Part shown: one piece after another, positions 128-17,463 of the stretch
Position numbering within the stretch: the first letter of the stretch is position 1
Layout of the letters: every line of letters starts with the position of its first letter
Origin: Flavipsychrobacter sp.
GTDB lineage: Bacteria > Bacteroidota > Bacteroidia > Chitinophagales > Chitinophagaceae
Assembly (NCBI GenBank): GCA_051959855.1
Contig: JBQCEX010000109.1
Span: 1 to 26,497, forward strand
DNA length: 26,497 nucleotides
Direction: 5' to 3'
Notes under the pieces: generated by a model
The model's input: only the letters and a program-made list of their open reading frames with translations
The model's database searches: none
What the model was told of the DNA's origin: nothing
Program-made: the position numbers and the translations under genes

Positions 128-1642
128 CTATTCTTTTGCCAACCGTAATACCTGCTCTCCATCGCTATTCGCCAGTCGTACAAAATAGATACCGGCTTGT
201 AGACTACCTAAGTTCAGGGGAATATTATAGCTACCGGTCGCCAATGTTTTTTGCTGCAATATTGTTTGTACGGCCCTTCCGTTTACATCATAAATTGTTA
301 TAAATGGCGCGTCCGGTTTACTCAGGCTAAAGTGCAATGTAGCCACATCATGCGAAGGATTAGGATATAAGCTAGCGTAGCTAAGTGTTGAAAATACAAA
401 AGGCACACCGGTATAGCCTTCCAGTTTTAATTTAAAAAAGTCAGCTTCTGCCTCATCAGCAAGACCCGCAAATGTAATAGTATGATCATTAGTATCAATC
501 GCCAGGCCTGCAAAGTTTGAAAAAGTAGTACGAGTATTAAAAAGCGAAAGCGGAACTGTAGTTGTTCCATTTGTGCCGAAGCTGCTATCATAGCTAAGGT
601 CTGGCTTATAGCTACTAACAAAATAGTTAGAGCTTTTAACCCCGGCACCTATAAAATTGCCGTTTGGCAATAGAGCTAAGGCTTCCAAAGGTTCATTTAC
701 GGGTGCCAATCCGTTTATCCCCCAGGTGCTGTCAATTATTCCATTTGCGGTAAATCTTTTGAGATAACTAGTAAAAGTAACAGTAGAATATGCAAAGGCT
801 AGTAGCTTCCCATCAGCTTGCTCAAGCAAAGATGCCAACCGCAACGTATCAACACTGGCTTTGCCATTTATACCAAAGCTGGAATCAATTTGTCCATTTG
901 CTGTTATTACCGAAAAATTATTTGAATGTATGGACGGACCTACAACACACATTTTACCACTTCGCAGCTGCACCAGGCCCTGTATACTTGTCAGGCTCGA
1001 ATCCGTTTTTAAAACACACATGCCATTTACACCAAATGTTGAATCATATGAGCCATCAGGCTTTAATTTTATAATGCATGCCACTGCATTGTCGAAAGAG
1101 TCAGCAGCTGTAGCGCCTATTACAATTTTATTATCTGGCTTAACTGCTACATCATAACCTGAAAAAATAATATTATTGCCTGGCGCTTTAATTATTGATG
1201 CGCCATTTATACCGAATGTAGAATCAAGTGTGCCATTGGTCTGCACCCTGATACAAATAAGCTTGTAAAGTCCATCTGTAAATATAAATCCGGTTGCAAG
1301 TATTTTGCCGTCGGCCTGCATAGCAGCACCGAAGCAATCAAAATTAGAGTCTATGGCGATGGAGGCTGTGCCCTTTATTCCAAAAGTATTATCCCTGCTG
1401 CCATCTTTTAAATAGCGTCTGATTACCATTCCGCCATCGCCGCTACCTGTATCGGCTAACACTATTGTCCCACCGCCACTTATTGGCATTAGTTGATAGA
1501 TATGGGCACTTAAACCGAATTTTGCTATCTGGTCTTTAAAATATCCATCAACTCCATAAGTCGAGTCCAAAGTGCCTGGTTGGGCAAAAGAACAAATGCT
1601 AACAAAAAGTAGTAACAGCAGAATGGGTAGAGGATGTTTCAT
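128..1642 (-). CDS. Delta-60 repeat (DUF5122 beta-propeller) protein with T9SS type A C-terminal sorting domain, paralog 1
   Basis: Sec signal peptide; recurring (L)DSTFG.NG / QADGKILATG repeats; C-terminal YPNP...IYDVNGR...LQAGIYFVRL...LAKE Por-secretion tail. Confidence 0.88.
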   Translation of the reverse strand: MKHPLPILLLLLFVSICSFAQPGTLDSTYGVDGYFKDQIAKFGLSAHIYQLMPISGGGTIVLADTGSGDGGMVIRRYLKDGSRDNTFGIKGTASIAIDSNFDCFGAAMQADGKILATGFIFTDGLYKLICIRVQTNGTLDSTFGINGASIIKAPGNNIIFSGYDVAVKPDNKIVIGATAADSFDNAVACIIKLKPDGSYDSTFGVNGMCVLKTDSSLTSIQGLVQLRSGKMCVVGPSIHSNNFSVITANGQIDSSFGINGKASVDTLRLASLLEQADGKLLAFAYSTVTFTSYLKRFTANGIIDSTWGINGLAPVNEPLEALALLPNGNFIGAGVKSSNYFVSSYKPDLSYDSSFGTNGTTTVPLSLFNTRTTFSNFAGLAIDTNDHTITFAGLADEAEADFFKLKLEGYTGVPFVFSTLSYASLYPNPSHDVATLHFSLSKPDAPFITIYDVNGRAVQTILQQKTLATGSYNIPLNLGSLQAGIYFVRLANSDGEQVLRLAKE

Positions 1643-1884: not shown

Positions 1885-3495
1885 CTAATTTTTTATGATT
1901 GCTATTGATTTTTTTTCAAAACTGGTCTGCAAGGTAATAATATAGTTACCTGCTTGCAGGTCATCCATATCTACATCCATCTCGTGCTTTCCAACGGCAA
2001 AATTTTTGGATAAGGAAATTACTTTTATTATTCTTCCGGACATGTCATACAGTAGCGCCGATATGCGGATGGATGTGTTGAGTGAAAAGTAAATTTTTGT
2101 TTTGCTATTTGTAGGAACAGGATAGGCATACACCGATGTAAATGCTGAGTGGACCGATTGAACAGATGCATTTTCTTCAAGCTTGAACTTCATCAGGTTA
2201 ATGTTTTTTCGCGGGTCGCTTGTAGTGCTTAGCCCACCCAGTATTATTGATTTGCTGTACAGATCTATTGCCATGTCCCTGGTCTTGTCTACCGTATAGA
2301 AGCCGCTGCCCGAAATAGCAACATCCGTACTGCCATCCGTACCAAATGAACTATCGATGTACCCATTAGCATTAAATCTTGCTACCACATAGGTAAACCC
2401 GTTGGTGCCGGGCGCAATGGTGGAAACTCCCCCGAAAATTAATTTTCCGGTTGACTTAATATCCATGAAGCATGGATTTTGGTTAGGATAAAAATAGGTG
2501 CTCGTAATGCCGTTTTCACCCCATGTGCTGTCCGCACTTCCGTTTTCATTTAGCCTGTGCAGATAGTAGTCCAGCCAGTATGCGGGGTGCATGCTTGTAT
2601 CATAGGTTTCAACAACCCCTATCAGCTTTTTGTCAGGCTGCTCTATAATTCCATATCCGTATGCTGAAGAATCATAGCTATAAGTAACTACGCCATCATG
2701 GCCAAAAGTAGAATCAATGATACCATTGGTATTAATGCGCATTATGACAGCTTTATAAATTCGGCCAAAATTATAGTTGCCGGCTAATGCAATTTTCCCC
2801 GATTGCAGTATAGTGGCATCATTAAGCATATCATCAAATGATCCGAAGCTTTTTGTAAACAGACCATTTTTACCGAAGCTAATATCCGGACTCCCGTTAG
2901 CATTTACACGCAGCAGTGCCCAGGAAAAACTAAAATTGCTGTCAACTGCCTGTCCTGCTATCACGATTCGGCCATCTGCTTGTATAAGTGGCTTGCTGCC
3001 AAACAAGCATAAAAAGTGGCTAGGCTTCATGCCTATAGTAACGCCGTTATTGCCGAAAGATGAATCTAATGTTCCATCAGCATTTATTCTTGCAACCGCA
3101 AGATCATACACATAGTTTATGAAATCAGTTTCCCGGTAGCCTGCAACTACAATTTTACCATCACTTTGAAGGGCTGCGCCGGTAAGGTAAATGTTTCGGC
3201 CCAGGCGACAATAAGCTGTGCCATCTGTCCCAAAGCTCCGGTCCACCGTTCCATCAGCCTGGTATCGCCTTATGCCAAGTTCTTCTAGTGTGTCTTTTAG
3301 TACATTGCCCAGCATCAAAATTTTTCCATTGCCTAATGCTATGGTTTTAAACATATCGTTGTCCAGCGATGTGGTAAGAAATGAATCTGTCACAATTCCG
3401 TGTTCACCAAACGATGAATCAAGCCTTCCAACCTGGCAATAAGCACTATAAGGAAGTAATAACACGAGAAGGATAGGTAAAAATCGATAGGACAT
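1885..3495 (-). CDS. Delta-60 repeat (DUF5122) protein with T9SS type A sorting domain, paralog 2
   Basis: Signal peptide; LDSSFG..G / QSDGKIVVAG repeats; C-terminal YPVPT...LYDMSGR...LQAGNYIITL...IIKN. Confidence 0.88.
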   Translation of the reverse strand: MSYRFLPILLVLLLPYSAYCQVGRLDSSFGEHGIVTDSFLTTSLDNDMFKTIALGNGKILMLGNVLKDTLEELGIRRYQADGTVDRSFGTDGTAYCRLGRNIYLTGAALQSDGKIVVAGYRETDFINYVYDLAVARINADGTLDSSFGNNGVTIGMKPSHFLCLFGSKPLIQADGRIVIAGQAVDSNFSFSWALLRVNANGSPDISFGKNGLFTKSFGSFDDMLNDATILQSGKIALAGNYNFGRIYKAVIMRINTNGIIDSTFGHDGVVTYSYDSSAYGYGIIEQPDKKLIGVVETYDTSMHPAYWLDYYLHRLNENGSADSTWGENGITSTYFYPNQNPCFMDIKSTGKLIFGGVSTIAPGTNGFTYVVARFNANGYIDSSFGTDGSTDVAISGSGFYTVDKTRDMAIDLYSKSIILGGLSTTSDPRKNINLMKFKLEENASVQSVHSAFTSVYAYPVPTNSKTKIYFSLNTSIRISALLYDMSGRIIKVISLSKNFAVGKHEMDVDMDDLQAGNYIITLQTSFEKKSIAIIKN

Positions 3496-4541: not shown

Positions 4542-4549
4542 TAGTTTTG
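4542..4549 (+). promoter_or_regulatory. Sigma-A -7 box (TAGTTTTG) for the SDR gene
   Basis: Exact TAnnTTTG match 16 nt before the ATG at 4565. Confidence 0.5.
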
Positions 4550-4564
4550 TCAAAAAATTATTTC

Positions 4565-5380
4565 ATGGACTTAGGGTTAAAAGGCAGAACAATTTTCATC
4601 ACTGGCGGCAGCAATGGCATAGGAAAAGCAACAGCTTTGCTCCTTGCAGAAGAAAAAGGACTCAACATCACCATCAGCTATTTTAAGAACAAGGAAAATG
4701 CGGATGCCATCGTGCAGCAGATAAATGCATCAGGCAATAATGGCTTAGCAGTATATCTCGATCTTGCGGACCACAATTCCATCAGGCAGGCAGTTGCAGA
4801 AATAAATAACACTTTTGGTGGTATTGATGTGCTGGTAAACAATGCAGTGCAATGGGGCAACCCTGCCAATCGCGGAAAAGCTTTTGAAGAGTTGCCCATC
4901 GACCAATGGCAGGAATTGATCAGTATAAATCTTTTTGGCACTATCCTGCTTACGCAGCTTGCAGTGCCGCACATGCGCCGCAGCAAGTGGGGCCGCATCA
5001 TCAATGTCTCCAGCGATGTCGGCTACGACAGCATGAAAGGTTCCGGCCCTTACAGCACGCTTAAAACAGCCCTGAATGGATTCACCGCTAATCTGGTCAT
5101 AGAGCTTTCTGCTGATGGCGTGCTGAGCAATGTGGTTATCCCCAGCTGGACACTTACCGATAGGGCGCTCGGCAATTTTCCTGAAGCATTTCGCGAGCTG
5201 GCAGTAAAAGCATATCCCACAGGCCGCATTACCACTCCTGAGGATATTGCTGCTATGATTGTATTTCTCGGCTCAGCCGCAAATGGACATGTAAATGGAG
5301 AGCAGATACGTGTAACCGGCAAAAATTCTCAATCTATGCTTGCATCAATATTTCATGACTATACTATGAATAAAAAGTGA
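4565..5380 (+). CDS. Short-chain dehydrogenase/reductase (SDR, FabG-like)
   Basis: MDLGLKGR start, TGGSNGIG Rossmann motif, VLVNNA, catalytic YxxxK (YSTLK). Confidence 0.92.
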   Translation: MDLGLKGRTIFITGGSNGIGKATALLLAEEKGLNITISYFKNKENADAIVQQINASGNNGLAVYLDLADHNSIRQAVAEINNTFGGIDVLVNNAVQWGNPANRGKAFEELPIDQWQELISINLFGTILLTQLAVPHMRRSKWGRIINVSSDVGYDSMKGSGPYSTLKTALNGFTANLVIELSADGVLSNVVIPSWTLTDRALGNFPEAFRELAVKAYPTGRITTPEDIAAMIVFLGSAANGHVNGEQIRVTGKNSQSMLASIFHDYTMNKK

Positions 5381-5466: not shown

Positions 5467-5574
5467 TTCACGCCGAACAAGTAAAATAGTTCAAGCTAAA
5501 TGACGTCATCATAATCCAACTGCTTGCTTCAAAAACACTTTTTGAAATTTTTAATTTTTACTTTTTAATTGAAT

Positions 5575-5897
5575 AATGTGGACATCTTAATTTGGAACCT
5601 ACCCTTTCCGCATAGTACCTTGCAACATACCTCTTTCAGAGGGGCGGGTTATGTTTAATACATGTCGCCATTAGCTAATCATCATATCAGCTAATTGGTA
5701 AGTTCTTTGACATACTGTAAACTCTAACATCTATTAGCTCATCAGCTGATCATCACATTGTCTAATTTTAAATGCGACATTTTGTAACCTTTTGGGTAGT
5801 TTTTGCGTAGTAATGTTACTTTCTATAAAAGTATCATAACTCAGTAAATACAAGGCATCTGGCCGAATGAGCCTAATAAAATGTCCCAAAAGAAAAA
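5575..5897 (+). repeat. Dispersed modular repeat, copy 1
   Basis: Four blocks match the reverse complement of 12161-12461: A 5575-5597 (23/23), B 5704-5725 (20/22), C 5770-5822 (52/53), D 5878-5897 (20/20). Confidence 0.9.
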
Positions 5898-5923
5898 ATC
5901 CAGTGGCCTGTTACATTAATGCC

Positions 5924-5956
5924 CAAAAGAAAGCGGATAGCTGTTTGCCATCCGCT
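5924..5956 (-). terminator. Intrinsic terminator of delta-60 paralog 3
   Basis: Minus strand AGCGGATGGC-aaaca-GCTATCCGCT (10-bp stem, one G-U) followed by TTCTTTTG, ~20 nt after the stop at 5978. Confidence 0.75.
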
Positions 5957-5977
5957 CAATCAACATAGGACCCTGGT

Positions 5978-7579
5978 TTAATATTTCGTCACCTTCATTA
6001 CATCATGTTGGTGGTCACACCACATGTTCAGGAAGTAGTGCCCAGGTACCAGGTCATGCATATCCACAGATAAATGCTGCCTGCCATTTAGCATTAAGTT
6101 ATTGACTGAAACTATTTTTAAGGTCCGTCCGGTTATATCATTCAGTGTGATGTAGACATGTGCGGGCTCCTTCAGGTAAAAATCTAATTGCGTTTTGTCT
6201 GCTGCAGGATTAGGATATACCGATATGTTGGTGACTGTCGTTTGTATCGTTGGTACTGCCACATTATGTTCCAGCTTGTACTTCATCAGGTTCAAATTGG
6301 CATAATTCGTTACACCCGAAAGAACTAATGTTTTACTGTAAAGGTCAACTGACATAGCGTAGGGGTAATCTTCTACAGCGCTGCTGTTAGGTAAATATGT
6401 TTCTGTAACGCCAGCCATACCGAAGCTGTTATCGGGGCTGCCGTCGCTGTTAAAGCGCGCTACTATATAAAGATAACCTGTCAATGCACTGTCTGATGAG
6501 GCCCTTCCGCCAAACAGCAGTTTGCCGGTACTTTTTATATCCAGGAAACATGGGTAATCTCCGGGAAGGAAATGTGTCTTTACTACACCGCTGCTGCCCC
6601 AGCTATTGTCCGTGCTGCCATCTTCATTCAGTCGCAACAGGAAGCAATCGGGCACAAAGGCACTGTGATTTGCTGTATCTGTTGCTACAACACCGGCAAT
6701 CAATTTCTTATCAGATTGTTCTACTATAGCATAACCATAGTTAGCATTGCCACCAAAGTTTCGGGTTACCACACCGTCTGTCCCAAAGGTAGAGTCAACA
6801 CTGCCGTTGGTGTTCACACGCATCGCTGCTATGGTCCATGCTGGGTTTGAATAATAATCGCCCAATACGACAATCTTGCCGCTTTGTAACAAAGCCATAC
6901 TATAGAGGTTATTATATTTAGGCACAAAGCTCTTGATAAGCATGCCTGTACCATTAAAGCTTAGATCAGGTGAGCCATCGGCATTTAAACGGCTGATCAT
7001 AAATTGGGAATAATAGGCGGTATCTACGGCTGTTCCTGCCAATAATATTTTGCCATCACTTTGTACAGCTATTTGTTTCCCCGCCAGGCCGCTGTATCCT
7101 GCAGGCGGACTGATGCGTACCACTCCATCAGTGCCAAAGGTAGAATCCAGGTTACCGTCGGTTTTTACCCGCATGCACAGCAGCTTGTTTGTATATACAT
7201 TGGCATATCCGGTTATCAATATTTTACCGTCAGCCAGCATCGTAGCATCCAGGCCATATGTTGTAGTGTCAACTGATAGATATGAAATTCCCTTCCCACC
7301 ATGATAGCTCATATCCACAGCTCCATTTTCCAGGTATCTGTGCAGGACAATAGTTACAAGAAAGCTATGTACGGTATCGCCCATTGCAAGCAAGCGGCCA
7401 TCGCCTAAGGGCATTATTTTGTAAATGCGGCTTTCACTAAGCGTCACTGCCGGTGCAGTCGTTAGGGAATCCGATACAATGCCGTTCACTCCAAAGGTGG
7501 AGTCTAAAGTCCCTATGCCGGTCTGCGCTTTCGCAACCGTGCCTATTATGGTCATAAGGAAGAGTAAAAGGGATTTCAT
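5978..7579 (-). CDS. Delta-60 repeat (DUF5122) protein with T9SS type A sorting domain, paralog 3
   Basis: Signal peptide; LDSTFG.NG / QSDGKILLAG repeats; C-terminal YPNPA...LNDITGR...LVPGHYFLNM...VTKY. Confidence 0.88.
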   Translation of the reverse strand: MKSLLLFLMTIIGTVAKAQTGIGTLDSTFGVNGIVSDSLTTAPAVTLSESRIYKIMPLGDGRLLAMGDTVHSFLVTIVLHRYLENGAVDMSYHGGKGISYLSVDTTTYGLDATMLADGKILITGYANVYTNKLLCMRVKTDGNLDSTFGTDGVVRISPPAGYSGLAGKQIAVQSDGKILLAGTAVDTAYYSQFMISRLNADGSPDLSFNGTGMLIKSFVPKYNNLYSMALLQSGKIVVLGDYYSNPAWTIAAMRVNTNGSVDSTFGTDGVVTRNFGGNANYGYAIVEQSDKKLIAGVVATDTANHSAFVPDCFLLRLNEDGSTDNSWGSSGVVKTHFLPGDYPCFLDIKSTGKLLFGGRASSDSALTGYLYIVARFNSDGSPDNSFGMAGVTETYLPNSSAVEDYPYAMSVDLYSKTLVLSGVTNYANLNLMKYKLEHNVAVPTIQTTVTNISVYPNPAADKTQLDFYLKEPAHVYITLNDITGRTLKIVSVNNLMLNGRQHLSVDMHDLVPGHYFLNMWCDHQHDVMKVTKY

Positions 7580-7623
7580 ATTAATTGTTTTTATATAAAG
7601 GTATAGTCTATATTAAATATTTT

Positions 7624-7642
7624 AAAATGATTCAATCATTTT
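7624..7642. promoter_or_regulatory. Perfect 19-bp palindrome AAAATGATT-C-AATCATTTT, candidate operator
   Basis: Perfect dyad in the short divergent spacer between delta-60 paralog 3 and paaY, 10 nt upstream of a TATTTTTG -7 box (7652-7659). Confidence 0.6.
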
Positions 7643-7677
7643 TTCAATAATTATTTTTGAACAGCAATTCCGTTGAT

Positions 7678-8277
7678 ATGTTCTATTCATTTAAGGGCTT
7701 TATTCCAGTGGTTCATCCCTCTTCTTTCGTACATCCTCTTGCCGCAGTAACAGGCAATGTGGTGATAGGCAAAGACGTATATATAGGCCCGGGCGCTGCG
7801 CTGCGTGGCGACTGGGGAGGTATAGTAATAGAGGACGGCTGCAATGTGCAGGAAAGCTGCACGATACATATGTTTCCGGGGGTAACGGTGCTGCTGAAAG
7901 AAGCGGCGCATATAGGTCATGGGGCTATCATACACGGGGCTACAATAGGTCGTAATGTAATGGTAGGCATGAATGCTGTAATAATGGACGAAGTAGAGAT
8001 TGGTGATGAAAGTATAATAGGTGCAATGGCTTTTATAAATGCCAATACTAAAATACCATCCCGGTCGCTGGTAGTAGGCAACCCCGGCAAGATAATAAAG
8101 CAGGTGAGCGATGAAATGATAGCCTGGAAGACCAAGGGAACCCGCCTGTATCAAACCCTGCCTAAGGATTGTTATGATAGCCTTCGGGAATGCGAGCCGC
8201 TGCGGGAAATGCCAGCCAACCGTCCAACGCAGGAGTCACTTTACGAAATCTGGAATAAGATAAAGAACGAGCAATAG
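7678..8277 (+). CDS. paaY: PaaY-like hexapeptide-repeat (gamma-carbonic anhydrase family) protein
   Basis: PVVHPSSFVHPLAAVTGNV..G...IGPGAALRGDWG.I....CNVQESC..H...HIGHGAIIHG and the C-terminal WKTKGT.LYQ.L...C..SL...EPL pattern typical of PaaY. The ATG at 7678 is preferred over the TTG at 7657. Confidence 0.75.
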   Translation: MFYSFKGFIPVVHPSSFVHPLAAVTGNVVIGKDVYIGPGAALRGDWGGIVIEDGCNVQESCTIHMFPGVTVLLKEAAHIGHGAIIHGATIGRNVMVGMNAVIMDEVEIGDESIIGAMAFINANTKIPSRSLVVGNPGKIIKQVSDEMIAWKTKGTRLYQTLPKDCYDSLRECEPLREMPANRPTQESLYEIWNKIKNEQ

Positions 8278-8285
8278 ACAGTGCT

Positions 8286-8327
8286 AAAAAAGAAAAAGGT
8301 CAGATTCCGTAGAAACTGACCTTTCTT
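8286..8327. terminator. Bidirectional intrinsic terminator between convergent paaY and arsR-family genes
   Basis: AAAGGTCAG (8295-8303) pairs with CTGACCTTT (8316-8324), flanked by A-rich and T-rich tails. Confidence 0.75.
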
Positions 8328-8355
8328 AAAATGGGTAATCTGGGAAATTATCTAA

Positions 8356-8718
8356 TTAAGCTTCATCAGAATTAACCAGGTCATTCACAAATTTAGCCAC
8401 AGATGCTATACGTGCATGATTCAGCGCATAGTGGATAAATTTACCATCACGCTCAGTAATCACGATGTTAGCACGACGAAGGATAGCTAGGTGCTGAGAC
8501 GCAACAGACTGTTCGAGACGCAGTTTCACATAGATATCAGTTACATTCATGCGTTTGTTTTCTTCCAGCAACTTCACTATTTGCTGACGCAGTTTGTGGT
8601 TAATGGCTCTCAGTGTCATTGCAGCACTTTTTACAGCCATGTAATCTAATTTAATGTGTTCGTTCGAACCCTCGTCCTTGCGAATTACCAGCGTGTTAGC
8701 TGACATTGTCGTTTCCAT
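8356..8718 (-). CDS. ArsR/SmtB-family winged-helix transcriptional regulator
   Basis: LRAINHKLRQQIVKLL...NVTDIY..L.LEQSVASQHLAILRRANIV...RDGKFIHY; no metal-binding Cys. Confidence 0.9.
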   Translation of the reverse strand: METTMSANTLVIRKDEGSNEHIKLDYMAVKSAAMTLRAINHKLRQQIVKLLEENKRMNVTDIYVKLRLEQSVASQHLAILRRANIVITERDGKFIHYALNHARIASVAKFVNDLVNSDEA

Positions 8719-8815
8719 TTACATTAAAATTTTACAGGAGTTAAAAAATAATTACTTCTCTTATTGCTTAAAAAGCGTTAATAGACGCGGTCTATACCGC
8801 TTCGATAACAATATG

Positions 8816-8823
8816 CAAACATA
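8816..8823 (-). promoter_or_regulatory. Sigma-A -7 box (TATGTTTG) for the ArsR-family gene
   Basis: Exact TAnnTTTG match on the minus strand ~98 nt upstream of the ATG at 8718; a GCGGT-ctat-ACCGC hairpin (8787-8800) lies in the leader. Confidence 0.45.
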
Positions 8824-8915
8824 CTATAGTAAATAATATGAAACAACCTTTTAAATGCACATTCTGTTAACCTTGCGTTAAAAAAAACTTCAATAATATT
8901 TTTTAACAATAATAA

Positions 8916-9599
8916 TTAATTGATTTTGTTTGATTTATGTGTGAAAACTTGTTTCAAATAGAAAGGTTCTGCTGTGGATAAATTGACAAAGGCTTGACAC
9001 TTATATTGTTCGTATGCATACATAGCCCACGCATCTTTATCTATTAACTTATTAGGAATAATAACAGCTTTTTTAACATTATATATATTTTCTATTTGTT
9101 TGTCTGTTTCACCCGTTATTAACAGCCTGCCATTGATGCCATCTAGTAATTCTTCAAGCTCAGCCGCATGTATATGTTGTGGCTCTATGTATACTTTAAA
9201 TTCTTTATCATAGGCTCCGATGAAAAATTCATTTTCTCGGGCAATGAGCATACTCAAAAAAACATCATATTCATTCAAATTGTTATACTGCTGCCATGCG
9301 AGTAAAGTGAGTTTATTATCTAATAATAAAGGTTTATCCAAGGCATAACATAAGCCCTTTGCTGTGCCCATGCCTATACGCAACCCCGTGTAAGAACCTG
9401 GACCTGCACATACTGTTATAGCGCTAAGCTGCTGCATTGCAATGTTTGCTTCACTAAGTACCCCGTCAATTAACGTATTTATTAAAGCCGACTGGTTCTT
9501 GCTGTCTTCTATAGATTTGGCTGATACGATGTGCCCATCGGCGGATATGGCTACGAAGCCATTATCAGCGGAAGTATCTATGTGTAATAAGTATGTCAT
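8916..9599 (-). CDS. tsaB: tRNA t6A biosynthesis protein TsaB
   Basis: LLHIDTS N-terminus; AITVCAGPGSYTGLRIGMGTAKGLCYALDKPL signature; C-terminal EPFYLK. Confidence 0.93.
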   Translation of the reverse strand: MTYLLHIDTSADNGFVAISADGHIVSAKSIEDSKNQSALINTLIDGVLSEANIAMQQLSAITVCAGPGSYTGLRIGMGTAKGLCYALDKPLLLDNKLTLLAWQQYNNLNEYDVFLSMLIARENEFFIGAYDKEFKVYIEPQHIHAAELEELLDGINGRLLITGETDKQIENIYNVKKAVIIPNKLIDKDAWAMYAYEQYKCQAFVNLSTAEPFYLKQVFTHKSNKIN

Positions 9600-9610
9600 G
9601 GTTTGAATGG

Positions 9611-9638
9611 CAAAAATAGGGTGAGCGTATTACATTTG
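9611..9638. promoter_or_regulatory. Back-to-back sigma-A -7 boxes for divergent tsaB (TATTTTTG, 9618-9611, minus) and ridA (TACATTTG, 9631-9638, plus)
   Basis: Two exact TAnnTTTG matches in the 44-nt spacer, each a few nt before its ATG. Confidence 0.6.
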
Positions 9639-9643
9639 CAGCT

Positions 9644-10024
9644 ATGGAAAAGAAAATCGTTAATACTAATAATGCACCTGCGCCAATAGGGCCATATAAC
9701 CAGGCAATACAATTCGGTAATCTGCTTTTCGTATCGGGGCAAATATCGCTGGATGCTGCTACGGGCAGCCTGGTGCAAGGTGATATAAAGACTGAAACGC
9801 ACAAAGTGATGGAAAACCTGGCTGCGATACTAAAAGAAGCAGGCATGGATTTCTCAAACGTATTGAAGTCAACAATATTTCTGATGGACATGGGGCAGTT
9901 TGCACAAGTGAACGAAGTATATGGCAGCTATTTTAAAGATAATGCCCCTGCGCGTGAAACAGTGCAAGTGGCAGGCTTGCCGCGTGGTGTGAACGTGGAA
10001 ATATCTGTGATAGCAGGCAAATAA
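9644..10024 (+). CDS. ridA: RidA (YjgF/YER057c/UK114) family reactive-intermediate deaminase
   Basis: APAPIGPYNQA, LFVSGQI, VNEVYGSYF, PARETVQVAGLPRGVNVEI. Confidence 0.9.
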   Translation: MEKKIVNTNNAPAPIGPYNQAIQFGNLLFVSGQISLDAATGSLVQGDIKTETHKVMENLAAILKEAGMDFSNVLKSTIFLMDMGQFAQVNEVYGSYFKDNAPARETVQVAGLPRGVNVEISVIAGK

Positions 10025-10051
10025 TAATCAACATACAGTGTGAAATACTGG

Positions 10052-10090
10052 AATGGAATGTGCTTAACTGTAGAGCGCATTCCATTTTTT
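10052..10090 (+). terminator. Intrinsic terminator of ridA
   Basis: GGAATGTGCT (10055-10064) pairs with AGCGCATTCC (10074-10083), followed by ATTTTTT. Confidence 0.75.
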
Positions 10091-10326
10091 ATGATCGTTT
10101 GTAGCATAGGATATAGGACTGTAGCGGCTTTCAAATAAAAGCTAAAAATTGGGGATAGTATGTGAGTGTATATGAAGTATTCCATTGCATGTATAATGCG
10201 ATATGGTGAATTGCTGTGGATACAATGAGCAGTGATAGCATTGTTTGCATGATAATCTAAAGGTTTACAGGTGATTAAATAAAATTGAGCTTTTGGGGAT
10301 ATGCTGTGAATGAAAGTAGTTAAGAC

Positions 10327-10356
10327 AGCAGTGGAATGCAATTGCATCCCACTGCT
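10327..10356 (-). terminator. Hairpin downstream of glnS, probable terminator
   Basis: Minus strand AGCAGTGGGATGC-aatt-GCATTCCACTGCT (13-bp stem, one G-U) ~25 nt after the glnS stop; the U-tract is weak. Confidence 0.55.
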
Positions 10357-10381
10357 ATTATTCATATTGTTATTTAATGTT

Positions 10382-12061
10382 TTATCCTTTCTTCATTTCT
10401 TTTGCCCATGCATCTTTCAGTGTAACTGTACGGTTGAAGATGACCTTGTCAGGGGTGCTGTCTTTATCTACACAGAAGTAGCCTTTGCGCATGAACTGGA
10501 AGCGTTCGCCGGGTTGTGCTGCTGCCAAGCCGGGTTCTATGTATACCTGAGGCAGAACGTCCATAGAATCCGGATTGATGTAGTCTTTGAAATCACCTTC
10601 TTCGCTGGAAGGATCTTCTACGCGGAAGAGACGATCGTAAAGGCGGACCTCAGCTGTTTTGGCATGTGGTATGCTGACCCAATGAATAGTGCCTTTTACT
10701 GATATGCCGCTGGTATCGCTGCCGCTTTTGGTTTCGGGCAGGTATTCGCAAAGCACTTCGGTAACGTTGCCCTGCTCATCTTTATTGAAGCCTGTGCAGC
10801 GTACTATGTATGCATTCTTTAAGCGCACCATGAGACCGGGGCCAAGGCGGAAGAATTTCTTTGGTGGTTCTTCCATAAAGTCCTCGCGTTCTATCCACAG
10901 CTCGCGGCTGAAATGGAGCTTACGGCTGCCAGCACTTGCGTCTTCAGGATTGTTCTCTGAATTGAATATTTCTTCTTGTCCCTCTGGGTAATTGGTGATC
11001 ACTAACTTTACCGGATCGAGGACAGCCATGACACGGTTGGCAGTTTTGTTGAGCTGCTCGCGTACGCAGAATTCTAACAGGCCTACATCTACAATGTTTT
11101 CACGTTTGGCTATACCTATGGTATCGCAGAACTGACGGATAGCCTCCGGCGGATAACCGCGGCGGCGCATACCGCTGATAGTAGGCATACGTGGATCGTC
11201 CCAGCCATTGACATGCTTTTCATTTACCAGCTGCAGCAGCTTGCGCTTGCTCATAACCGTATAGGTAAGGTTGCGGCGGGCAAACTCGTACTGGTGAGAA
11301 GGGAATATCTCCAGCTTCTCAATGAACCAATCGTAAAGCGGGCGGTGATGTATGAACTCGAGCGTGCATATAGAATGTGTAATATGCTCAATGCTATCGC
11401 TCTGACCATGAGCGAAGTCGTACATGGGGTAGATGCACCATGCATCGCCTGTGCGGTGATGGTGTGCATGCTTGATGCGGTACATGAGCGGATCGCGCAG
11501 CAGCAGGTTAGGATGTGCCATGTCTATCCTGGCACGTAATGTCTTTTCACCATCCTTGTATTTGCCGGCACGCATATCTGCAAACAGCTGCAGGTTTTCC
11601 TCTACACTGCGGTTGCGGTAAGGGCTTTCCTTGCCGGGCTCTGTGGTAGAACCTTTAGTAGCCGCAATTTCATCAGCGCTCAGGTCATCCACATAAGCAA
11701 GGCCTTTTTTGATGAGTGTGACAGCAAACTGATATAGCTGCTCGAAATAATCTGAGGCGTATAACTCATTGGCCCATTCGCTGCCGGTGCCCTGGAGCAA
11801 CCATTTAATGTCAGCCTTTATGCTTTCTACATATTCAGTTTCCTCTGTTACCGGGTTGGTATCGTCGAAGCGGAGGTTGCATTTGCCATTGTATTTACGG
11901 GCCAAACCAAAGTTGAGGCAGATGGATGTAGCATGGCCTATGTGCAGGTAGCCATTCGGTTCCGGTGGGAAGCGCGTATGTATGCGGCCCCCGTTTTTGC
12001 CTTCGGCAATATCCTGTTCTATTATCTCTTCTAAAAAATTGAGTGACTTTTCTTCGCTCAT
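10382..12061 (-). CDS. glnS: Glutamine--tRNA ligase
   Basis: [15 protein letters not shown] (HIGH motif), [35 protein letters not shown]. The true start is MSEEKSLNF at 12061, preceded by a TACCTTTG -7 box; the ORF-track extension to 12148 is not coding. Confidence 0.97.
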
Positions 12062-12068
12062 AGCGCTG

Positions 12069-12076
12069 CAAAGGTA
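12069..12076 (-). promoter_or_regulatory. Sigma-A -7 box (TACCTTTG) of glnS
   Basis: Exact TAnnTTTG match, followed by CAGCGCT and then the ATG. Confidence 0.65.
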
Positions 12077-12086
12077 AATAATTATA

Positions 12087-12146
12087 AATGTGGTAATGTG
12101 ATGGAATGCGGCAATGTGTCGGAATGTGATAGCATGCTGCAATGTC
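12087..12146. repeat. Degenerate tandem repeat of AATGTG-type units, 18-nt period
   Basis: AATG(T/C)(G/C) at 12087, 12095, 12105, 12113, 12123 and 12141; units 12087-12104 and 12105-12122 are 14/18 identical. Confidence 0.65.
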
Positions 12147-12160
12147 ACATTTGTGGGAGA

Positions 12161-12461
12161 TTTTTCTTTTGGGACATTTTGAGTAGCTGAAACGACTGTA
12201 AGTATTGATTTTACTGGCTTATTAAAGATTTAGTAAAAGTAACATCACTACGCAAAAACTACCCAAAAGGTTACAAAATGTCGCATTTTGATTTTAGCCA
12301 TGAGTTGTAAGTCGTTAGTCAAAACTTATTAAAGGGTTTACAGTATATCAAAGAGCATTGATGTGTTCTTTGTGGGAACACACCCCTGACCCCTCTCAGA
12401 GGGAGGGGTTGTGCAAGATACTATGCGCGAGATGCGGATTCCAAATTAAGATGTCCACATT
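12161..12461 (-). repeat. Dispersed modular repeat, copy 2 (inverted relative to copy 1)
   Basis: Blocks A 12461-12439, B 12354-12333, C 12288-12236 and D 12180-12161 match copy 1 in reverse complement. Confidence 0.9.
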
Positions 12462-12638
12462 CCCGTATTTGATAATACAAGAGCTATTGCTTGATATGCA
12501 GCGCTCGTTTATGTTATTTCGACATTGCCCTGTTATGGTTGTTGGTATCGCTCATTCACGCTGCCCTCCTACATATCAACAACGGAGAAAATAATTTAGT
12601 TTTAGGATTTATGAATCGCAGTTGTAAAATGAAATAAA

Positions 12639-15825: not shown

Positions 15826-17463
15826 TTATTTGCCCAAACTATTTTCTTTACGGATCACTTCCTTCACGGCTTTGTCCAGCTCCTGAGTAATGCTTGCTAT
15901 GCCTTCTATTACTACCTTATTGGTGGGGTCAGTGAGATCATCATAATTGAATAACTGAACCAGGCCGAGAATGGACGCCACCGGGCCGCGCACATCATGC
16001 GCCTGCATATGTGATATTTCTTTCAGTACCTGCGATTGCTTTTTAATATGCTCTACCTGCTCGCGGATCATTTGCTGCTGCTGCCTTTTTTCGCGGGTGA
16101 GCATGCGGTTTCTTTTACTGTGCCTGCGCAAACTGCGCAATATAAATGCAATAAAGCATAATAGCAGTCCAATACTGATGATATAAATAACACGTTCTTC
16201 CTGTTTCTGTTTTTCTTTCAGCTTGCTTATTTGCAGTTCTTTGTCCTTTATGGTAAGAGCTTCATCTTTAATATCGAGTTGTCGTTTGTTTTCCAGCTCG
16301 GCAAGCTTGAGATTATTCTCGATAGAGAAAACAGAATCTTTTAAAGTAGTATATTCTTTAAGGCTGGTATATGCCTGCTGATAATTGCCTGATAAAAAGC
16401 TTGCGTTTGCGATATACTCGCTGAACTCGATAAGCGGACTTACAAAGTTGGTTGAACGACAGATAGCAGCAGCTTTTTGAAGATATTGTATGGCCTGTTG
16501 CAGGGCTGCCTGCTTACGAACGGCGGAAAGAGCCGGCAGCGTAGTATCTGTTGCCATGCTAAAATAAGCCTCACCGATATTGCCGAGATTAATGGCTATA
16601 CTATTCTGGTTGTTCACTTTTTTGCTCACATCCAGGGCTAATTGCAGATAATGAATAGCACTATCGTAACGGTGCATGTGTGTGTACACGTAGCCGATAT
16701 TGGACAAGTTTATCTGCACTGCATAGTATGAACCAAACTGTTTGTTGATGCCTAAAGCAAGCTTGTGATGTTCGAGCGCTTTAATATAATTACCATTTGC
16801 GTCTTCTATGATACCTATGTTGCCCAGGCAGCGTGCAATGCCAGGTTTATTGTTGGCCTGCTTATACAGATCGAGCGCCTTGTGATAATATTCCGCTGTT
16901 TTTTTATAATCCTTTTGTTCGAGATAAATAGAGCCGATATTCTCATTGATGATAGCCATATTAGCCAGCACATGTGCGGTCTCATAAATTTTTAAAGCTC
17001 TGAAATTGTATTCGAGCGCCTCAGTGTATTTACCTAAAGACATGTAGGCTAATGCAAGATTGGAAGCGGTGGCTGCGATATCTGTCTGGTTATGCAGGGT
17101 TTGAAAAATCTGTAATGCTTTCAGCTCATGCTCAATTGCTTTGTTATGATCTGCGCGATTATGATAATTGGCACCAAGATCGGCATTTGCGAGGGCTATA
17201 CCTTTTTGCCAATGCAACTGCTCGGCAAGCTGCAAGGTTTGGGTGGCATATTGTAAGCCTGTATCTGTATTGATATTGGCGTAAATGAAAGCAAGCTGCT
17301 CCAGCAATTTAGCCTTATTGGTATCGGGGGACGCATGACTGAGCTCTCGTTTAAGAGAGTCTGTAATAGCAAGCTGAGACTTCTGTGCATTACCCAAAAG
17401 CGGCAACAACAGCAATAAAAAAAGGAAAGGGTTCTTCAATAGACAACTAAAATTTTTGAACAA
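15826..17463 (-). CDS. Periplasmic TPR-repeat sensor with one TM helix and a terminal HisKA (DHp) domain, lacking HATPase_c
   Basis: Signal peptide, multiple TPR helices (A...NLG..Y...G.Y..A......AL.I), TM VIYIISIGLLLCFIAFIL, coiled coil, H-box SHMQAHDVRGPVASILGL, stop ~45 aa later. The exact start is uncertain (TTG 17463 or 17439). Confidence 0.8.
   Translation of the reverse strand: MFKNFSCLLKNPFLFLLLLLPLLGNAQKSQLAITDSLKRELSHASPDTNKAKLLEQLAFIYANINTDTGLQYATQTLQLAEQLHWQKGIALANADLGANYHNRADHNKAIEHELKALQIFQTLHNQTDIAATASNLALAYMSLGKYTEALEYNFRALKIYETAHVLANMAIINENIGSIYLEQKDYKKTAEYYHKALDLYKQANNKPGIARCLGNIGIIEDANGNYIKALEHHKLALGINKQFGSYYAVQINLSNIGYVYTHMHRYDSAIHYLQLALDVSKKVNNQNSIAINLGNIGEAYFSMATDTTLPALSAVRKQAALQQAIQYLQKAAAICRSTNFVSPLIEFSEYIANASFLSGNYQQAYTSLKEYTTLKDSVFSIENNLKLAELENKRQLDIKDEALTIKDKELQISKLKEKQKQEERVIYIISIGLLLCFIAFILRSLRRHSKRNRMLTREKRQQQQMIREQVEHIKKQSQVLKEISHMQAHDVRGPVASILGLVQLFNYDDLTDPTNKVVIEGIASITQELDKAVKEVIRKENSLGK

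Follow-up and report, generated by a model that had tools for sequence, protein, structure and literature searches.

We analysed a window of 26,497 nucleotides of Flavipsychrobacter sp. DNA (contig JBQCEX010000109.1, positions 1–26,497) that carries two copies of a modular intergenic element. Copy 1 lies between convergent genes, encoding an SDR protein and a T9SS beta-propeller protein, and copy 2 lies between divergent genes, upstream of both glnS and an ORF on the opposite strand (Table 1). In order, the element comprises a T-tract, block A, hairpins (from one to three, differing in sequence), block B, a linker, and blocks C, D and E. Block A comprises TTTGG, a spacer of fixed length and a promoter-like TAnCTTGC, and block B comprises GYTCTTTGACA, three to four variable nucleotides and a second box, CTGTAAACCC. 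The B-C linker is one of a few alternative modules. The C-D-E unit, 133–149 nt long, has inverted ends (AAATGyGACATT) and tandem units of 10–11 nt; the whole A-E element has a short palindromic motif alone at both ends.

Pairwise alignment of the two copies reproduced the block identities on which the original prediction was built (A 23/23, followed by CGCATAGTAYCTTGCA; B 20/22; C 52/53; D 20/20), and an inverted-repeat scan agreed (I1, 5751–5897/12161–12307; I2, 5575–5644/12392–12461; I5, 5704–5725/12333–12354). The B-C linker is 44 nt and the C-D linker 55 nt in both copies, while the A-B distance is 106 nt in copy 1 and 84 nt in copy 2. The description of a modular, non-coding, multi-block element that is not simply one gene's promoter also held, as did its gene context. 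Its limits had been drawn too short, as the T-tract of copy 1 and the E block of both copies belong to it. The B-C linkers, described as unrelated, do differ in sequence, but they belong to a set of alternative repeat modules and are met again in other copies.

Table 1. Features of the two element copies and their surroundings in the window
Feature	Position	Strand	Description
SDR gene	4547–5380	+	
Copy 1, T-tract to block E	5548–5917	+	
Copy 1 pre-A module	5548–5570	+	phased T-tracts TTTTTAATTTTTACTTTTTAAT, UP-element-like
Copy 1 block A	5575–5624	+	AATGTGGACAT, sharp left boundary; putative promoter firing rightwards
Copy 1 −33-like TTTG	5591–5594	+	within block A; spacer of fixed length follows
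Copy 1 −7-like box	5616–5623	+	TACCTTGC, one T short of TAnnTTTG
Copy 1 A-B interval	5630–5695	+	three hairpins: 5630–5642, 5643–5669, 5670–5695
Copy 1 block B	5702–5725	+	GTTCTTTGACA (boxA-like), TA, CTGTAAAC (second box)
Copy 1 B-C linker	5726–5769	+	AGCTAAT/CATCACATT type, common to at least 8 other copies
Copy 1 C-D-E unit	5770–5917	+	148 nt; ends are inverted AAATGyGACATT copies
Copy 1 block C	5770–5822	+	10–11-nt tandem units ACATTTTGnnn
Copy 1 C-D linker	5823–5877	+	
Copy 1 block D	5878–5897	+	
Copy 1 block E	5907–5917	+	degenerate copy
Intrinsic terminator of convergent T9SS gene	5931–5957	−	hairpin and T-run; outside the repeat
T9SS beta-propeller gene	5978–7579	−	
glnS	10382–12061	−	ATG at 12061
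glnS own canonical −7 box	12069–12076	−	TACCTTTG, 7 nt ahead of ATG
Copy 2, block A to module F	12461–12086	−	
Copy 2 CACATT repeat module F	12086–12128	−	sits upstream of block A in other copies
Copy 2 C-D-E unit	12141–12288	−	148 nt
Copy 2 block E	12157–12141	−	CCCACAAATGTGACATT
Copy 2 block D	12180–12161	−	
Copy 2 C-D linker	12235–12181	−	
Copy 2 block C	12288–12236	−	
Copy 2 B-C linker	12289–12332	−	GACTAAC/GACTTAC type, recurrent module
Copy 2 block B	12333–12356	−	GCTCTTTGATATACTGTAAACCCT; boxA-like, one C-to-T change
Copy 2 A-B interval	12360–12409	−	two GC-rich hairpins
Copy 2 hairpin two	12384–12360	−	GGTGTGTTC...GAACACATC
Copy 2 hairpin one	12409–12389	−	ACCCCTC...GAGGGGT
Copy 2 block A	12413–12461	−	AATGTGGACAT...; TTTG 12445–12442; TATCTTGC 12420–12413

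A dispersed repeat family

The element had been taken to be present twice. Instead of two neutrally decaying copies, the source genome (G000; 3.49 Mb in 600 contigs, 90% complete) holds about 66 loci with the same blocks in constant order, part of a modular intergenic repeat family of 40–85 copies in this uncultured Chitinophagaceae bacterium. The T-tract module alone has about 40 copies, often immediately 5' of block A. No 14-mers in the whole genome are repeated more often than those of the blocks, so the likeness between copies 1 and 2 is far above chance. The same composite element is also abundant in a sister species (G001). The 13-mer GYTCTTTGACATA occurs 42 times in G000, 35 times in G001 and 27 times in one Flavipsychrobacter genome (G041), compared with 0–5 times in each of 61 other relatives, where the instances checked fall in the rRNA spacer; the reversed pattern, used as a control, occurs 0 times in G000 and G001, once in G041 and 0–2 times in the remaining genomes. 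Units in G041–G043 stand alone: after the upstream gene's terminator come a canonical TAnnTTTG box, then a hairpin, block B and GC-rich hairpins, and in G042 and G043 an array of five GTTAGCAAAG units, analogous to the block C units, lies downstream of B. The element matches no Rfam family: a covariance-model search of the window returned no match at the gathering score and noise alone at E up to 10 for both copies, and eight related loci gave no match. The exact B 20-mer gave no match in IMG/VR viral contigs.

The equal linker lengths of the two window copies had been read as spacing under selection, a reading that the wider family does not support. Start-to-start distances range over 73–125 nt from A to B and 51–84 nt from B to C (outliers up to 264 nt), and take values of 86, 97–98 or 107–109 nt from C to D. 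At the glnS site, the sister species ortholog has a different linker type (TTTTACT) and a different A-B filler from those of window copy 2. The variable layout points to shuffling of modules among copies and not to a constraint on spacing.

Variable spacing bears directly on the original idea of a DNA-level multi-site nucleoprotein element, for which helix spacing would matter and which we now consider very improbable. Its candidate sites would be the AATGnnACATT palindromes, an imperfect inverted repeat in B (TTGACA-TAC-TGTAAA) and the 10–11-bp phased GTAAC/ACATTTTG units of C, to which a recombinase would bind, or else a regulator such as a winged-helix response regulator. AATGnnACATT does occur 209 times where about 52 are expected from base composition, the 10–11-nt period of C and of the G042 and G043 GTTAGCAAAG arrays is what sites along a single face of the DNA typically show, and ACATTTTGTAAC resembles OmpR-type half-site arrays. 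However, the blocks are variably spaced across the family, the distance between the two boxes of B varies by 1 nt, a variation ill suited to a dimeric operator, and a search for a linked recombinase or regulator gene found only housekeeping neighbours. The B half is also more simply explained by its identity with the rRNA boxA, described below. The original alternatives of nucleoprotein site and structured RNA were each only partly right: the front of the element reads as promoter, 5' hairpin and boxA, and C-E could hold protein sites.

Block B carries an rRNA-type boxA sequence

Block B opens with 15 nt, AAGYTCTTTGACATA, that are identical to the 16S-23S spacer boxA of six of seven Chitinophagaceae rRNA operons examined, the seventh having an A where the other six have Y; these operons are those of relatives, the rRNA operon of this MAG being unassembled. 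The sequence AAG[C/T]TCTTTGACATA equals the rRNA spacer aaGyTCTTTGACATATTGGG in six of the seven, and in copy 1 it is AA (5700–5701) together with the start of B that gives the 15 nt shared with the spacer boxA of those six operons. The leader boxA of Chitinophagaceae rRNA operons reads GTTCTTTGAAAG. No counterpart of the second box or of blocks C-E was found in the rRNA operons; CATTGTCGCATT repeats, similar to module F of copy 2, precede the spacer boxA in the operon of one related genome. Block B is nearly invariant between species whose glnS DNA is just 77% identical, while the linkers turn over, and its division into two boxes suits sites read by a protein and not a seed for base pairing. 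The genes for NusB and Rho are both encoded.

A promoter-like box and hairpins precede boxA

About 85 copies of block A align without gaps, showing two conserved boxes, a spacer of variable sequence and conservation that drops to zero past CTTGCA. Chitinophagaceae rrn promoters have the form aaTTTGG-N19-TAccTTTGCA. In the window copies, TTTG is followed by a 21-nt spacer and TA(C/T)CTTGC; the interval from TTTG to the box is 21–22 nt across this genus compared with 19 nt in the family rrn promoters. The −7-like box of this genus, TAnCTTGC, is one T short of TAnnTTTG, which G041-type units carry in canonical form. Given the short −7 box and the longer spacer, the promoter strength of block A is uncertain. 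A TAnnTT(TG/GC) box lies upstream of 97 of 107 B copies as against 10.5% of shuffles, at distances from B that cluster at 28–31, 41–48 and about 86 nt.

The interval between A and B folds throughout the family (mean z −2.6 against shuffles; 71% below −1.5), with hairpins that are unrelated in sequence, whose arms do not align in register across copies and which end 4–6 nt ahead of the boxA-like box. In copy 1 (MFE −20.2 kcal/mol, z −2.0) the arms of the last hairpin are AGCTAAT, accounting for the CATCA/AGCT units noted originally, and the hairpin ends 6 nt before the box. In copy 2 (MFE −24.4 kcal/mol, z −4.4) the GC-rich hairpins are a REP-like module that is placed elsewhere in other copies. 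All tandem rrn promoters examined in the family show the same succession of promoter, hairpin and GTTCTT. In B. subtilis rrn, too, a 5' hairpin is followed at once by the NusB-binding boxA (PMC13753749), a layout that the element matches.

Gene context, orientation and mobility

Judged from crude ORF calls, the downstream gene is co-oriented with the element in 47 of 62 cases, and between tandem genes 22 elements are co-oriented and 2 opposed (binomial p ~4e-5). Such a bias would be expected of an element that fires outward. Genes downstream of elements include glnS, gltX, ileS, valS, two DEAD-box helicase genes, rpsA and yebC. Those checked (glnS, valS and ileS) keep their own canonical promoter beside the ATG, so the element would be dispensable for their basal expression; the −7 box of glnS is also kept in relatives that have no element. 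Both G000 and G001 carry the element upstream of glnS and gltX, G001 has none upstream of valS and ileS, and glnS of G041 and G043 has none. Synteny with the sister species stops exactly at the outer edge of block A in copy 2.

This pattern recalls selfish, now mostly inert MITE-like repeats, whose blocks would be leftover transposase or recombinase sites or products of gene conversion and whose likeness to boxA and promoter would record an origin in an rRNA operon without present function. Presence and absence between sister species, amplification confined to lineages (42, 35 and 27 copies as against 0–5 elsewhere), a module swap at an orthologous site and the retention of native promoters are all in keeping with such repeats, as are the inverted ends of C-E, its subterminal 10–11-nt iterated units and its change in length by one unit (138 vs 148 nt). 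We nevertheless hold this explanation to be rather unlikely. An inert insert would not be expected to show 22:2 co-orientation between tandem genes, a near-invariant B amid changing linkers, or a hairpin that survives full replacement of its sequence. Nor was there a direct repeat around 31 C-E units or the valS insertion that would mark a target-site duplication, and neither a Y1_Tnp transposase nor a gene-sized pair of element ends, as in an autonomous element, was found in the fragmented, 90% complete genome.

About a quarter of the copies, window copy 1 included, point towards a convergent gene from its 3' side. For these copies antitermination into a gene would be meaningless, which counts against reading the element as a leader. 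An alternative is a family of sibling small RNAs, each short, with a protective 5' hairpin and a single-stranded B, that would act in trans, for example as NusB-S10 decoys or antisense regulators. The stand-alone units of G041–G043, mostly facing the next gene's 3' end, favour this proposal, as does copy 1, which faces both the convergent gene and its terminator hairpin; among B-only units of other Flavipsychrobacter genomes, 26 are opposed and 13 co-oriented. Yet most copies in G000 lie upstream of co-oriented genes, B consists of two boxes around a variable centre, and complementary sites show no excess (43 11-mer matches vs ~23 expected, many of them variant B copies). With no conserved 3' terminator seen, and no conserved fold found in C-E by RNAalifold, small RNAs seem to us quite improbable. 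The terminator of the T9SS gene is the first hairpin ahead of any rightward transcript from copy 1.

Proposed function and relation to known systems

The reading that we favour, at a probability of roughly 0.5, is that the copies are composite, once-mobile elements joining a promoter and a Nus-type antitermination leader to the C-D-E unit. From sequence features we infer that block A fires and that B acts as a boxA, and also the way in which the element moves. The front part (T-tract, A, hairpins and B) would start transcription and follow the design of the family's rRNA promoters, with a promoter of the Bacteroidota type, a 5' stem-loop that is retained while its sequence varies freely, and, 4–6 nt on, an rRNA-type boxA. 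On the nascent RNA this boxA would recruit NusB-S10, with NusG and NusA, protecting RNA polymerase against Rho and pausing, and the protected polymerase could then cross some 150–400 nt of untranslated repeat (linker, C, D and E) into the next gene. C-D-E would most likely be remnant mobilisation or recombination sites, or else an array of protein-binding sites, and recombination swapping modules between copies would give the family its mosaic look.

A stronger version, which we regard as unlikely, is a self-spreading promoter-boxA cassette that places some 40–60 ordinary genes under rRNA-style, Nus-factor-dependent, Rho-resistant transcription. If it were true, the cassette's genes would include four aminoacyl-tRNA synthetases, rpsA and two DEAD-box helicases, and repeats would have built a "mobile antitermination regulon" independently in at least two lineages, the genus of G000 and G001 and one Flavipsychrobacter species.

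One close parallel is the rRNA antitermination signal (boxB hairpin, boxA and boxC, acting with NusB-S10-NusG-NusA-SuhB), with which the element shares the order of promoter (putative in the element), small hairpin and boxA. The element's boxA core, GYTCTTTGACA, is one base off GYTCTTTAANA, a consensus that is gamma-proteobacterial and has 0–7 non-rRNA instances per genome (PMC5725501). Unlike the rRNA signal, the element is not upstream of rRNA, is dispersed in at least 40 copies per genome as opposed to one or two per rRNA operon, and follows its boxA with a different second box and repeat modules, its activity being predicted from sequence. Non-rRNA boxA sites, as at suhB, rpsJ and CRISPR arrays in Enterobacteria, likewise lie in the untranslated leaders of ordinary genes, roughly one known case in four having to do with translation (PMC5725501). 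They occur singly and are inherited vertically, whereas the boxA described here is repeat-borne, has reached dozens of sites and varies from one sister species to the other.

The Correia elements of Neisseria and other promoter-bearing MITEs resemble the element in being short, non-coding intergenic repeats with inverted ends, which in the element belong to the C-E unit, and presence/absence differences between relatives. Their outward promoter activity can alter expression of the next gene, as that of the element might; to our knowledge, no boxA-type leader has been described for Correia elements. Unlike them, the element showed no TA or other target duplication, and a full-length terminal inverted repeat of the whole element was not found. 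Pneumococcal BOX elements and E. coli BIMEs are, like the element, intergenic, hairpin-rich and non-coding, with collinear modules in variable subsets and numbers. They are unrelated to it in sequence, the "boxA" of BOX being a coincidence of name, and the element differs from both in that its modules include a promoter-like block and an antitermination box of the rRNA type.

A dispersed family of modular elements

Aligning 5540-5960 (+) with 12100-12500 (-) reproduced the shared blocks of the original prediction: copies 1 and 2 are identical over block A (23/23, then CGCATAGTAyCTTGCA) and over D (20/20), and agree at 20/22 positions in B and 52/53 in C. Each copy has a 44-nt B-C linker and a 55-nt C-D linker; A and B lie 106 nt apart in copy 1 and 84 nt apart in copy 2. 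Copy 1 lies between convergent genes, as had been described, and glnS lies downstream of copy 2, starting at an ATG and not at the GTG of the raw ORF (Table). T9SS sorting domains place the window in Bacteroidota.

The element, first described as present twice, is a dispersed family. When both copies were searched by BLAST in the genome (G000; 3.49 Mb, 600 contigs, 90% complete, 42% G+C; the window is contig C109), they gave 160 matches at 66 loci on 62 contigs. By module we count ~55 matches to B, ~52 to C, ~43 to A (~85 by a looser pattern), 40 pre-A T-tracts and 24 D, all lower bounds because the MAG is fragmented and some contigs stop within repeats. The genome's top 14-mers by copy number come from element blocks (AATGCGACATTTTG, 40 copies; TGACATACTGTAAA, 34). 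A scan of GTDB species genomes restricts block B to Flavipsychrobacter-like Chitinophagaceae MAGs, and among 40 relatives the C-D part occurs only in G001, a sister species of the same genus assembled in 790 contigs. These repeats explain the 600-790-contig assemblies of both genus MAGs.

The window pair is not a local duplication, because copy 1 is closer to a copy on contig C571 (85%, its best match) than to copy 2 (81%). We also rejected the two copies as ends of a composite transposon or of an invertible 6.3-kb segment, because the genes between them are housekeeping ones (T9SS protein, acetyltransferase, ArsR, TsaB, GlnRS), the C571 match is closer, and modules are never mutually inverted. 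Contig C555 carries a second inverted pair ~5.8 kb apart, whose likeness to the window pair, with 6.3 kb between arms, is probably a coincidence.

Table. Coordinates of elements and neighboring features.
Feature	Sequence	Position	Strand
Element copy 1	window	5575-5897	+
Element copy 2	window	12461-12161	-
Short-chain dehydrogenase gene	window	4547-5380	+
DUF5122/T9SS beta-propeller gene	window	5978-7579	-
Its paralog	window	128-1642	-
Its paralog	window	1885-3495	-
glnS start, ATG	window	12061	
glnS raw ORF, GTG	window	12148	
Module F repeats, copy 2	window	12086-12128	
REP-like double hairpin	window	12360-12409	-
TPR-repeat protein gene	window	15826-17463	-
Second inverted pair, arm 1	C555	5218-5505	+
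Second inverted pair, arm 2	C555	11323-11489	-
~102-aa gene	L082	705-1010	-
~102-aa gene	L084	2693-3001	+
~102-aa gene	L086	762-1070	-
Promoter-like repeats, viral contig	L197	6559-6720	

Module order is constant on one strand: pre-A, A, a variable interval, B, linker, C, D, E. Start-to-start distances are 73-125 nt for A to B and 86, 97-98 or 107-109 nt for C to D; for B to C, 24 copies fall at 51-84 nt and a further 10 at 98-264 nt. The equal 44-nt and 55-nt spacers of the window pair, previously taken as a sign of selection on spacing, do not demonstrate a constraint, as distances vary family-wide and modules are exchanged. The supposedly unrelated B-C linkers do differ in sequence, but they are alternative modules that each recur in several copies (AGCTAAT/CATCACATT, TTTTACT, GGATTATCC...GGGG and CGACTTAC). 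At the glnS site of G001, C-D-E and the flanks are the same as in copy 2 (~85-90% identity), and the linker type, A-B filler and A subtype differ; because these orthologous elements carry different versions of all three, we read the copies as exchanging modules.

Block B matches rRNA boxA in sequence

Antitermination through boxA is considered a feature of rRNA operons and a few fixed genes per genome. Block B begins G(C/T)TCTTTGACA, and the gamma-proteobacterial boxA consensus is GYTCTTTAANA (PMC5725501). Using operons of relatives, that of G000 being missing from the assembly, we found that the 16S-23S spacer boxA, aaG(t/c)TCTTTGACATATTGG, equals block B over 15 nt (AAGyTCTTTGACATA) in six of seven operons; the seventh, from another Flavipsychrobacter MAG (G042), carries A in place of y. 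The rRNA leader carries (a/g)(t/a)TCTTTGAAAG ~140 nt before 16S in the 11 Chitinophagaceae loci with enough upstream sequence (the G042 leader is partly masked), and in Chitinophagaceae rRNA operons (L105-L118) two or three tandem TAnnTTTGCA promoters each lead into a short hairpin and then GTTCTT(A/T/C)A. When the modules were compared with one related rRNA operon, B alone matched; A, C, D, E and F did not.

The 13-mer GYTCTTTGACATA occurs 42 times in G000 (reversed-pattern control, 0), 35 times in G001 and 27 times in G041, a further Flavipsychrobacter MAG. Counts are 0-4 in each of 40 other family genomes, where the instances checked lie just after 16S, and 0-5 in each of 21 other genomes of the G041 genus (5 each in G042 and G043). 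In variant copies B comprises two boxes, GYTCTTTGACA and CTGTAAACCC, with 3-4 free nt between them. The front half of the element shares its hairpin-then-boxA order with the rrn operons of B. subtilis, which carry a small hairpin at their start and a NusB-binding boxA immediately after it (PMC13753749). G000 encodes NusB, on contig C366, and Rho.

At gathering and permissive thresholds, Rfam returned no family match for the window copies and related loci; a DUF2693-RNA match over B is noise (13.6 bits against the 81.3 needed). A T-box likeness of GGGGTGGTAC hairpin modules in G041 was dropped, with no Rfam match.

Repeats of CACATT/GCCGCATT (module F) come after E in copy 2 and lie ahead of A elsewhere in the family. 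In the G042 rRNA spacer (L090), CATTGTCGCATT repeats resembling them adjoin boxA on its upstream side, hinting that more than boxA may come from the rRNA spacer.

A promoter-like block and a hairpin precede block B

Across ~85 copies block A aligns with zero gaps as AATGTGGAyATsTTwwyTTGGAA, 18-19 variable nt and TAnCTTGC, with a sharp left edge and conservation lost immediately 3' of CTTGCA. This two-box pattern resembles the rRNA promoters of Chitinophagaceae (aaTTTGG-N19-TAccTTTGCA), although the -7 box is one T short and the spacer longer. Family-wide conservation supports block A as a putative promoter. A TAnnTT(TG/GC) box lies within 130 nt upstream in 97 of 107 B copies, compared with 10.5% of shuffled controls.

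Judged by folding each sequence against its shuffles, the interval before B folds better than expected (mean z -2.6, with 71% lying below -1.5). In B copies the stem stops 4-6 nt 5' of TCTTTG. The CATCA/AGCT units reported for copy 1 form the arms of such a hairpin. RNAalifold gave no consensus fold for 16 promoter-hairpin-B units, because MAFFT does not align their hairpin arms in register.

In three MAGs, G041 (JBGAFS01), G042 (SZAS-24) and G043 (43-93), B is present and A, C, D and E are all missing. Upstream of these B-only units there is always a canonical -7 box of the Bacteroidota (TAtATTTG/TAaATTTG), then a hairpin of variable sequence, with B 28-31 nt after the box; the terminator of the upstream gene is often directly 5' of the box. 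RNAs acting in trans, as siblings or decoys, could also be built from such hairpin-B units; we consider this improbable, as B has no excess of antisense targets in the genome.

Three B-only units of G042 and G043 are convergent to paralogous or orthologous ~102-aa genes (MKLI.VTGI.EYRDDIAA...; Table), for which no Pfam family and no G000 homologue were found.

Gene context and mobility

On a crude gene map of simple ORF calls (>=90 aa), the downstream gene is co-oriented with the element in 47 of 62 cases. Between tandem genes 22 elements are co-oriented and 2 opposed (binomial p ~4e-5, our own calculation); 14 lie between divergent genes and 10, copy 1 included, between convergent genes. This asymmetry is what is expected as the trace of an outward-firing insert after selection. 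The convergent neighbors, among them pyruvate kinase, Tex and NAD synthase, are ordinary genes and include no transposase. The 41 co-oriented downstream genes scanned include glnS, gltX, ileS, valS, two DEAD-box helicases, yebC, dnaX and feoB, besides many unrelated enzymes; rpsA is also downstream, 650 nt from a C-only copy. The four synthetases exceed expectation (Poisson ~2e-4, post hoc and assuming ~20 synthetase genes in ~3,100).

At valS, the upstream element forms a ~450-nt insertion in G000 that is absent from G001, and the one upstream of ileS is likewise absent; those upstream of glnS and gltX are common to both genomes, and glnS in G041 and G043 has no upstream element. At each site examined the gene has kept a canonical TAnnTTTG box beside its ATG. 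Searches found no target-site duplication and, in G000, no transposase partner (Y1_Tnp, gene-sized end pairs, neighboring genes).

We put at roughly one in two the probability that this is a composite, recombining, formerly or currently mobile element whose front half is an rRNA-style promoter leader, a reading drawn from sequence comparison. In such a leader the promoter, 5' hairpin and boxA would load Nus factors on RNA polymerase, which would then cross the untranslated repeat and transcribe the next gene. Against it stand the off-consensus -7 box, the retained native promoters, and the quarter of copies, with most B-only units elsewhere, that face a gene's 3' end. Inert MITE-like repeats of rRNA-spacer origin appear unlikely, though less so than RNAs acting in trans.

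If the promoter-leader reading is true, a promoter-hairpin-boxA repeat at dozens of loci would be a new genome rewiring of elongation, beyond initiation, and would show how mobile promoters landing far from a start codon overcome Rho. The family would offer ~100 natural boxB-boxA leader variants for Bacteroidota, where elongation control is poorly known. Were the units inert, it would still be a clean case of module shuffling in intergenic repeats.

The back half and other modules

The C-E unit spans 133-149 nt, mostly 138 or 148, the difference being one internal unit of 10-11 nt. C itself is made of such units (GCGACATTTT, GTAACCTTTT, GGGTAGTTTTT, GCGTAGTAAT, GTTAC...), and the ends of C-E are inverted, as the start of C is matched by E, and in part by D, in reverse complement. 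Related periodic arrays are found after B in other genera, with GTAACAATTTGTAACA in G041 and five GTTAGCAAAG units in G042 and G043; an rRNA promoter of G042 also has such an array, of GTAACGAAAG, behind it. RNAalifold found no consensus fold in 36 C-E units, and a small peptide from the block D ATG was rejected, as other copies have ACC, ATC or ATA and their frames differ. Candidate roles for C-E are protein sites on one DNA face or remnants of a mobilization site. A multi-site complex at the DNA level, for which the 10-11-nt units might speak and the variable module distances do not, is the least likely of the readings.

The exact B 20-mer occurs in no viral contig searched. One exact copy of the C-start 20-mer AAATGCGACATTTTGTAACC lies in the viral contig IMGVR_UViG_3300033273_000468, where it immediately follows a -7 box and the promoter context is unrelated; this contig contains three tandem promoter-like repeats (TATATTTGTCGTAAATGC...; Table), one of which holds the 20-mer.

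A REP-like, GC-rich double hairpin (CCCCTC...GAGGGGTCAGGGGTGTGT...) in the window recurs on C197, C67, C242 and C380 of G000. It is a separate small repeat whose place varies, the A-B interval in some copies and the B-C interval in one other; no RAYT-type Y1 transposase was found in G000. An analogue in G041 follows B (cccctcc...ggagggg / ...cGGGGTGGT). Downstream of some elements (C132, C523, C533; loci L046, L070) lies a T-tract (AATTTTGACTTTTTAATTTTGAA) with three TATACCC units at a 10-11-nt period, an iteron-like layout.

The window also encodes a protein with TPR Pfam matches. Three secreted proteins encoded there are paralogs of ~500-535 aa that all combine DUF5122 beta-propeller repeats with a sorting domain for T9SS at the C-terminus, and their internal repeats account for most direct-repeat families of the window.
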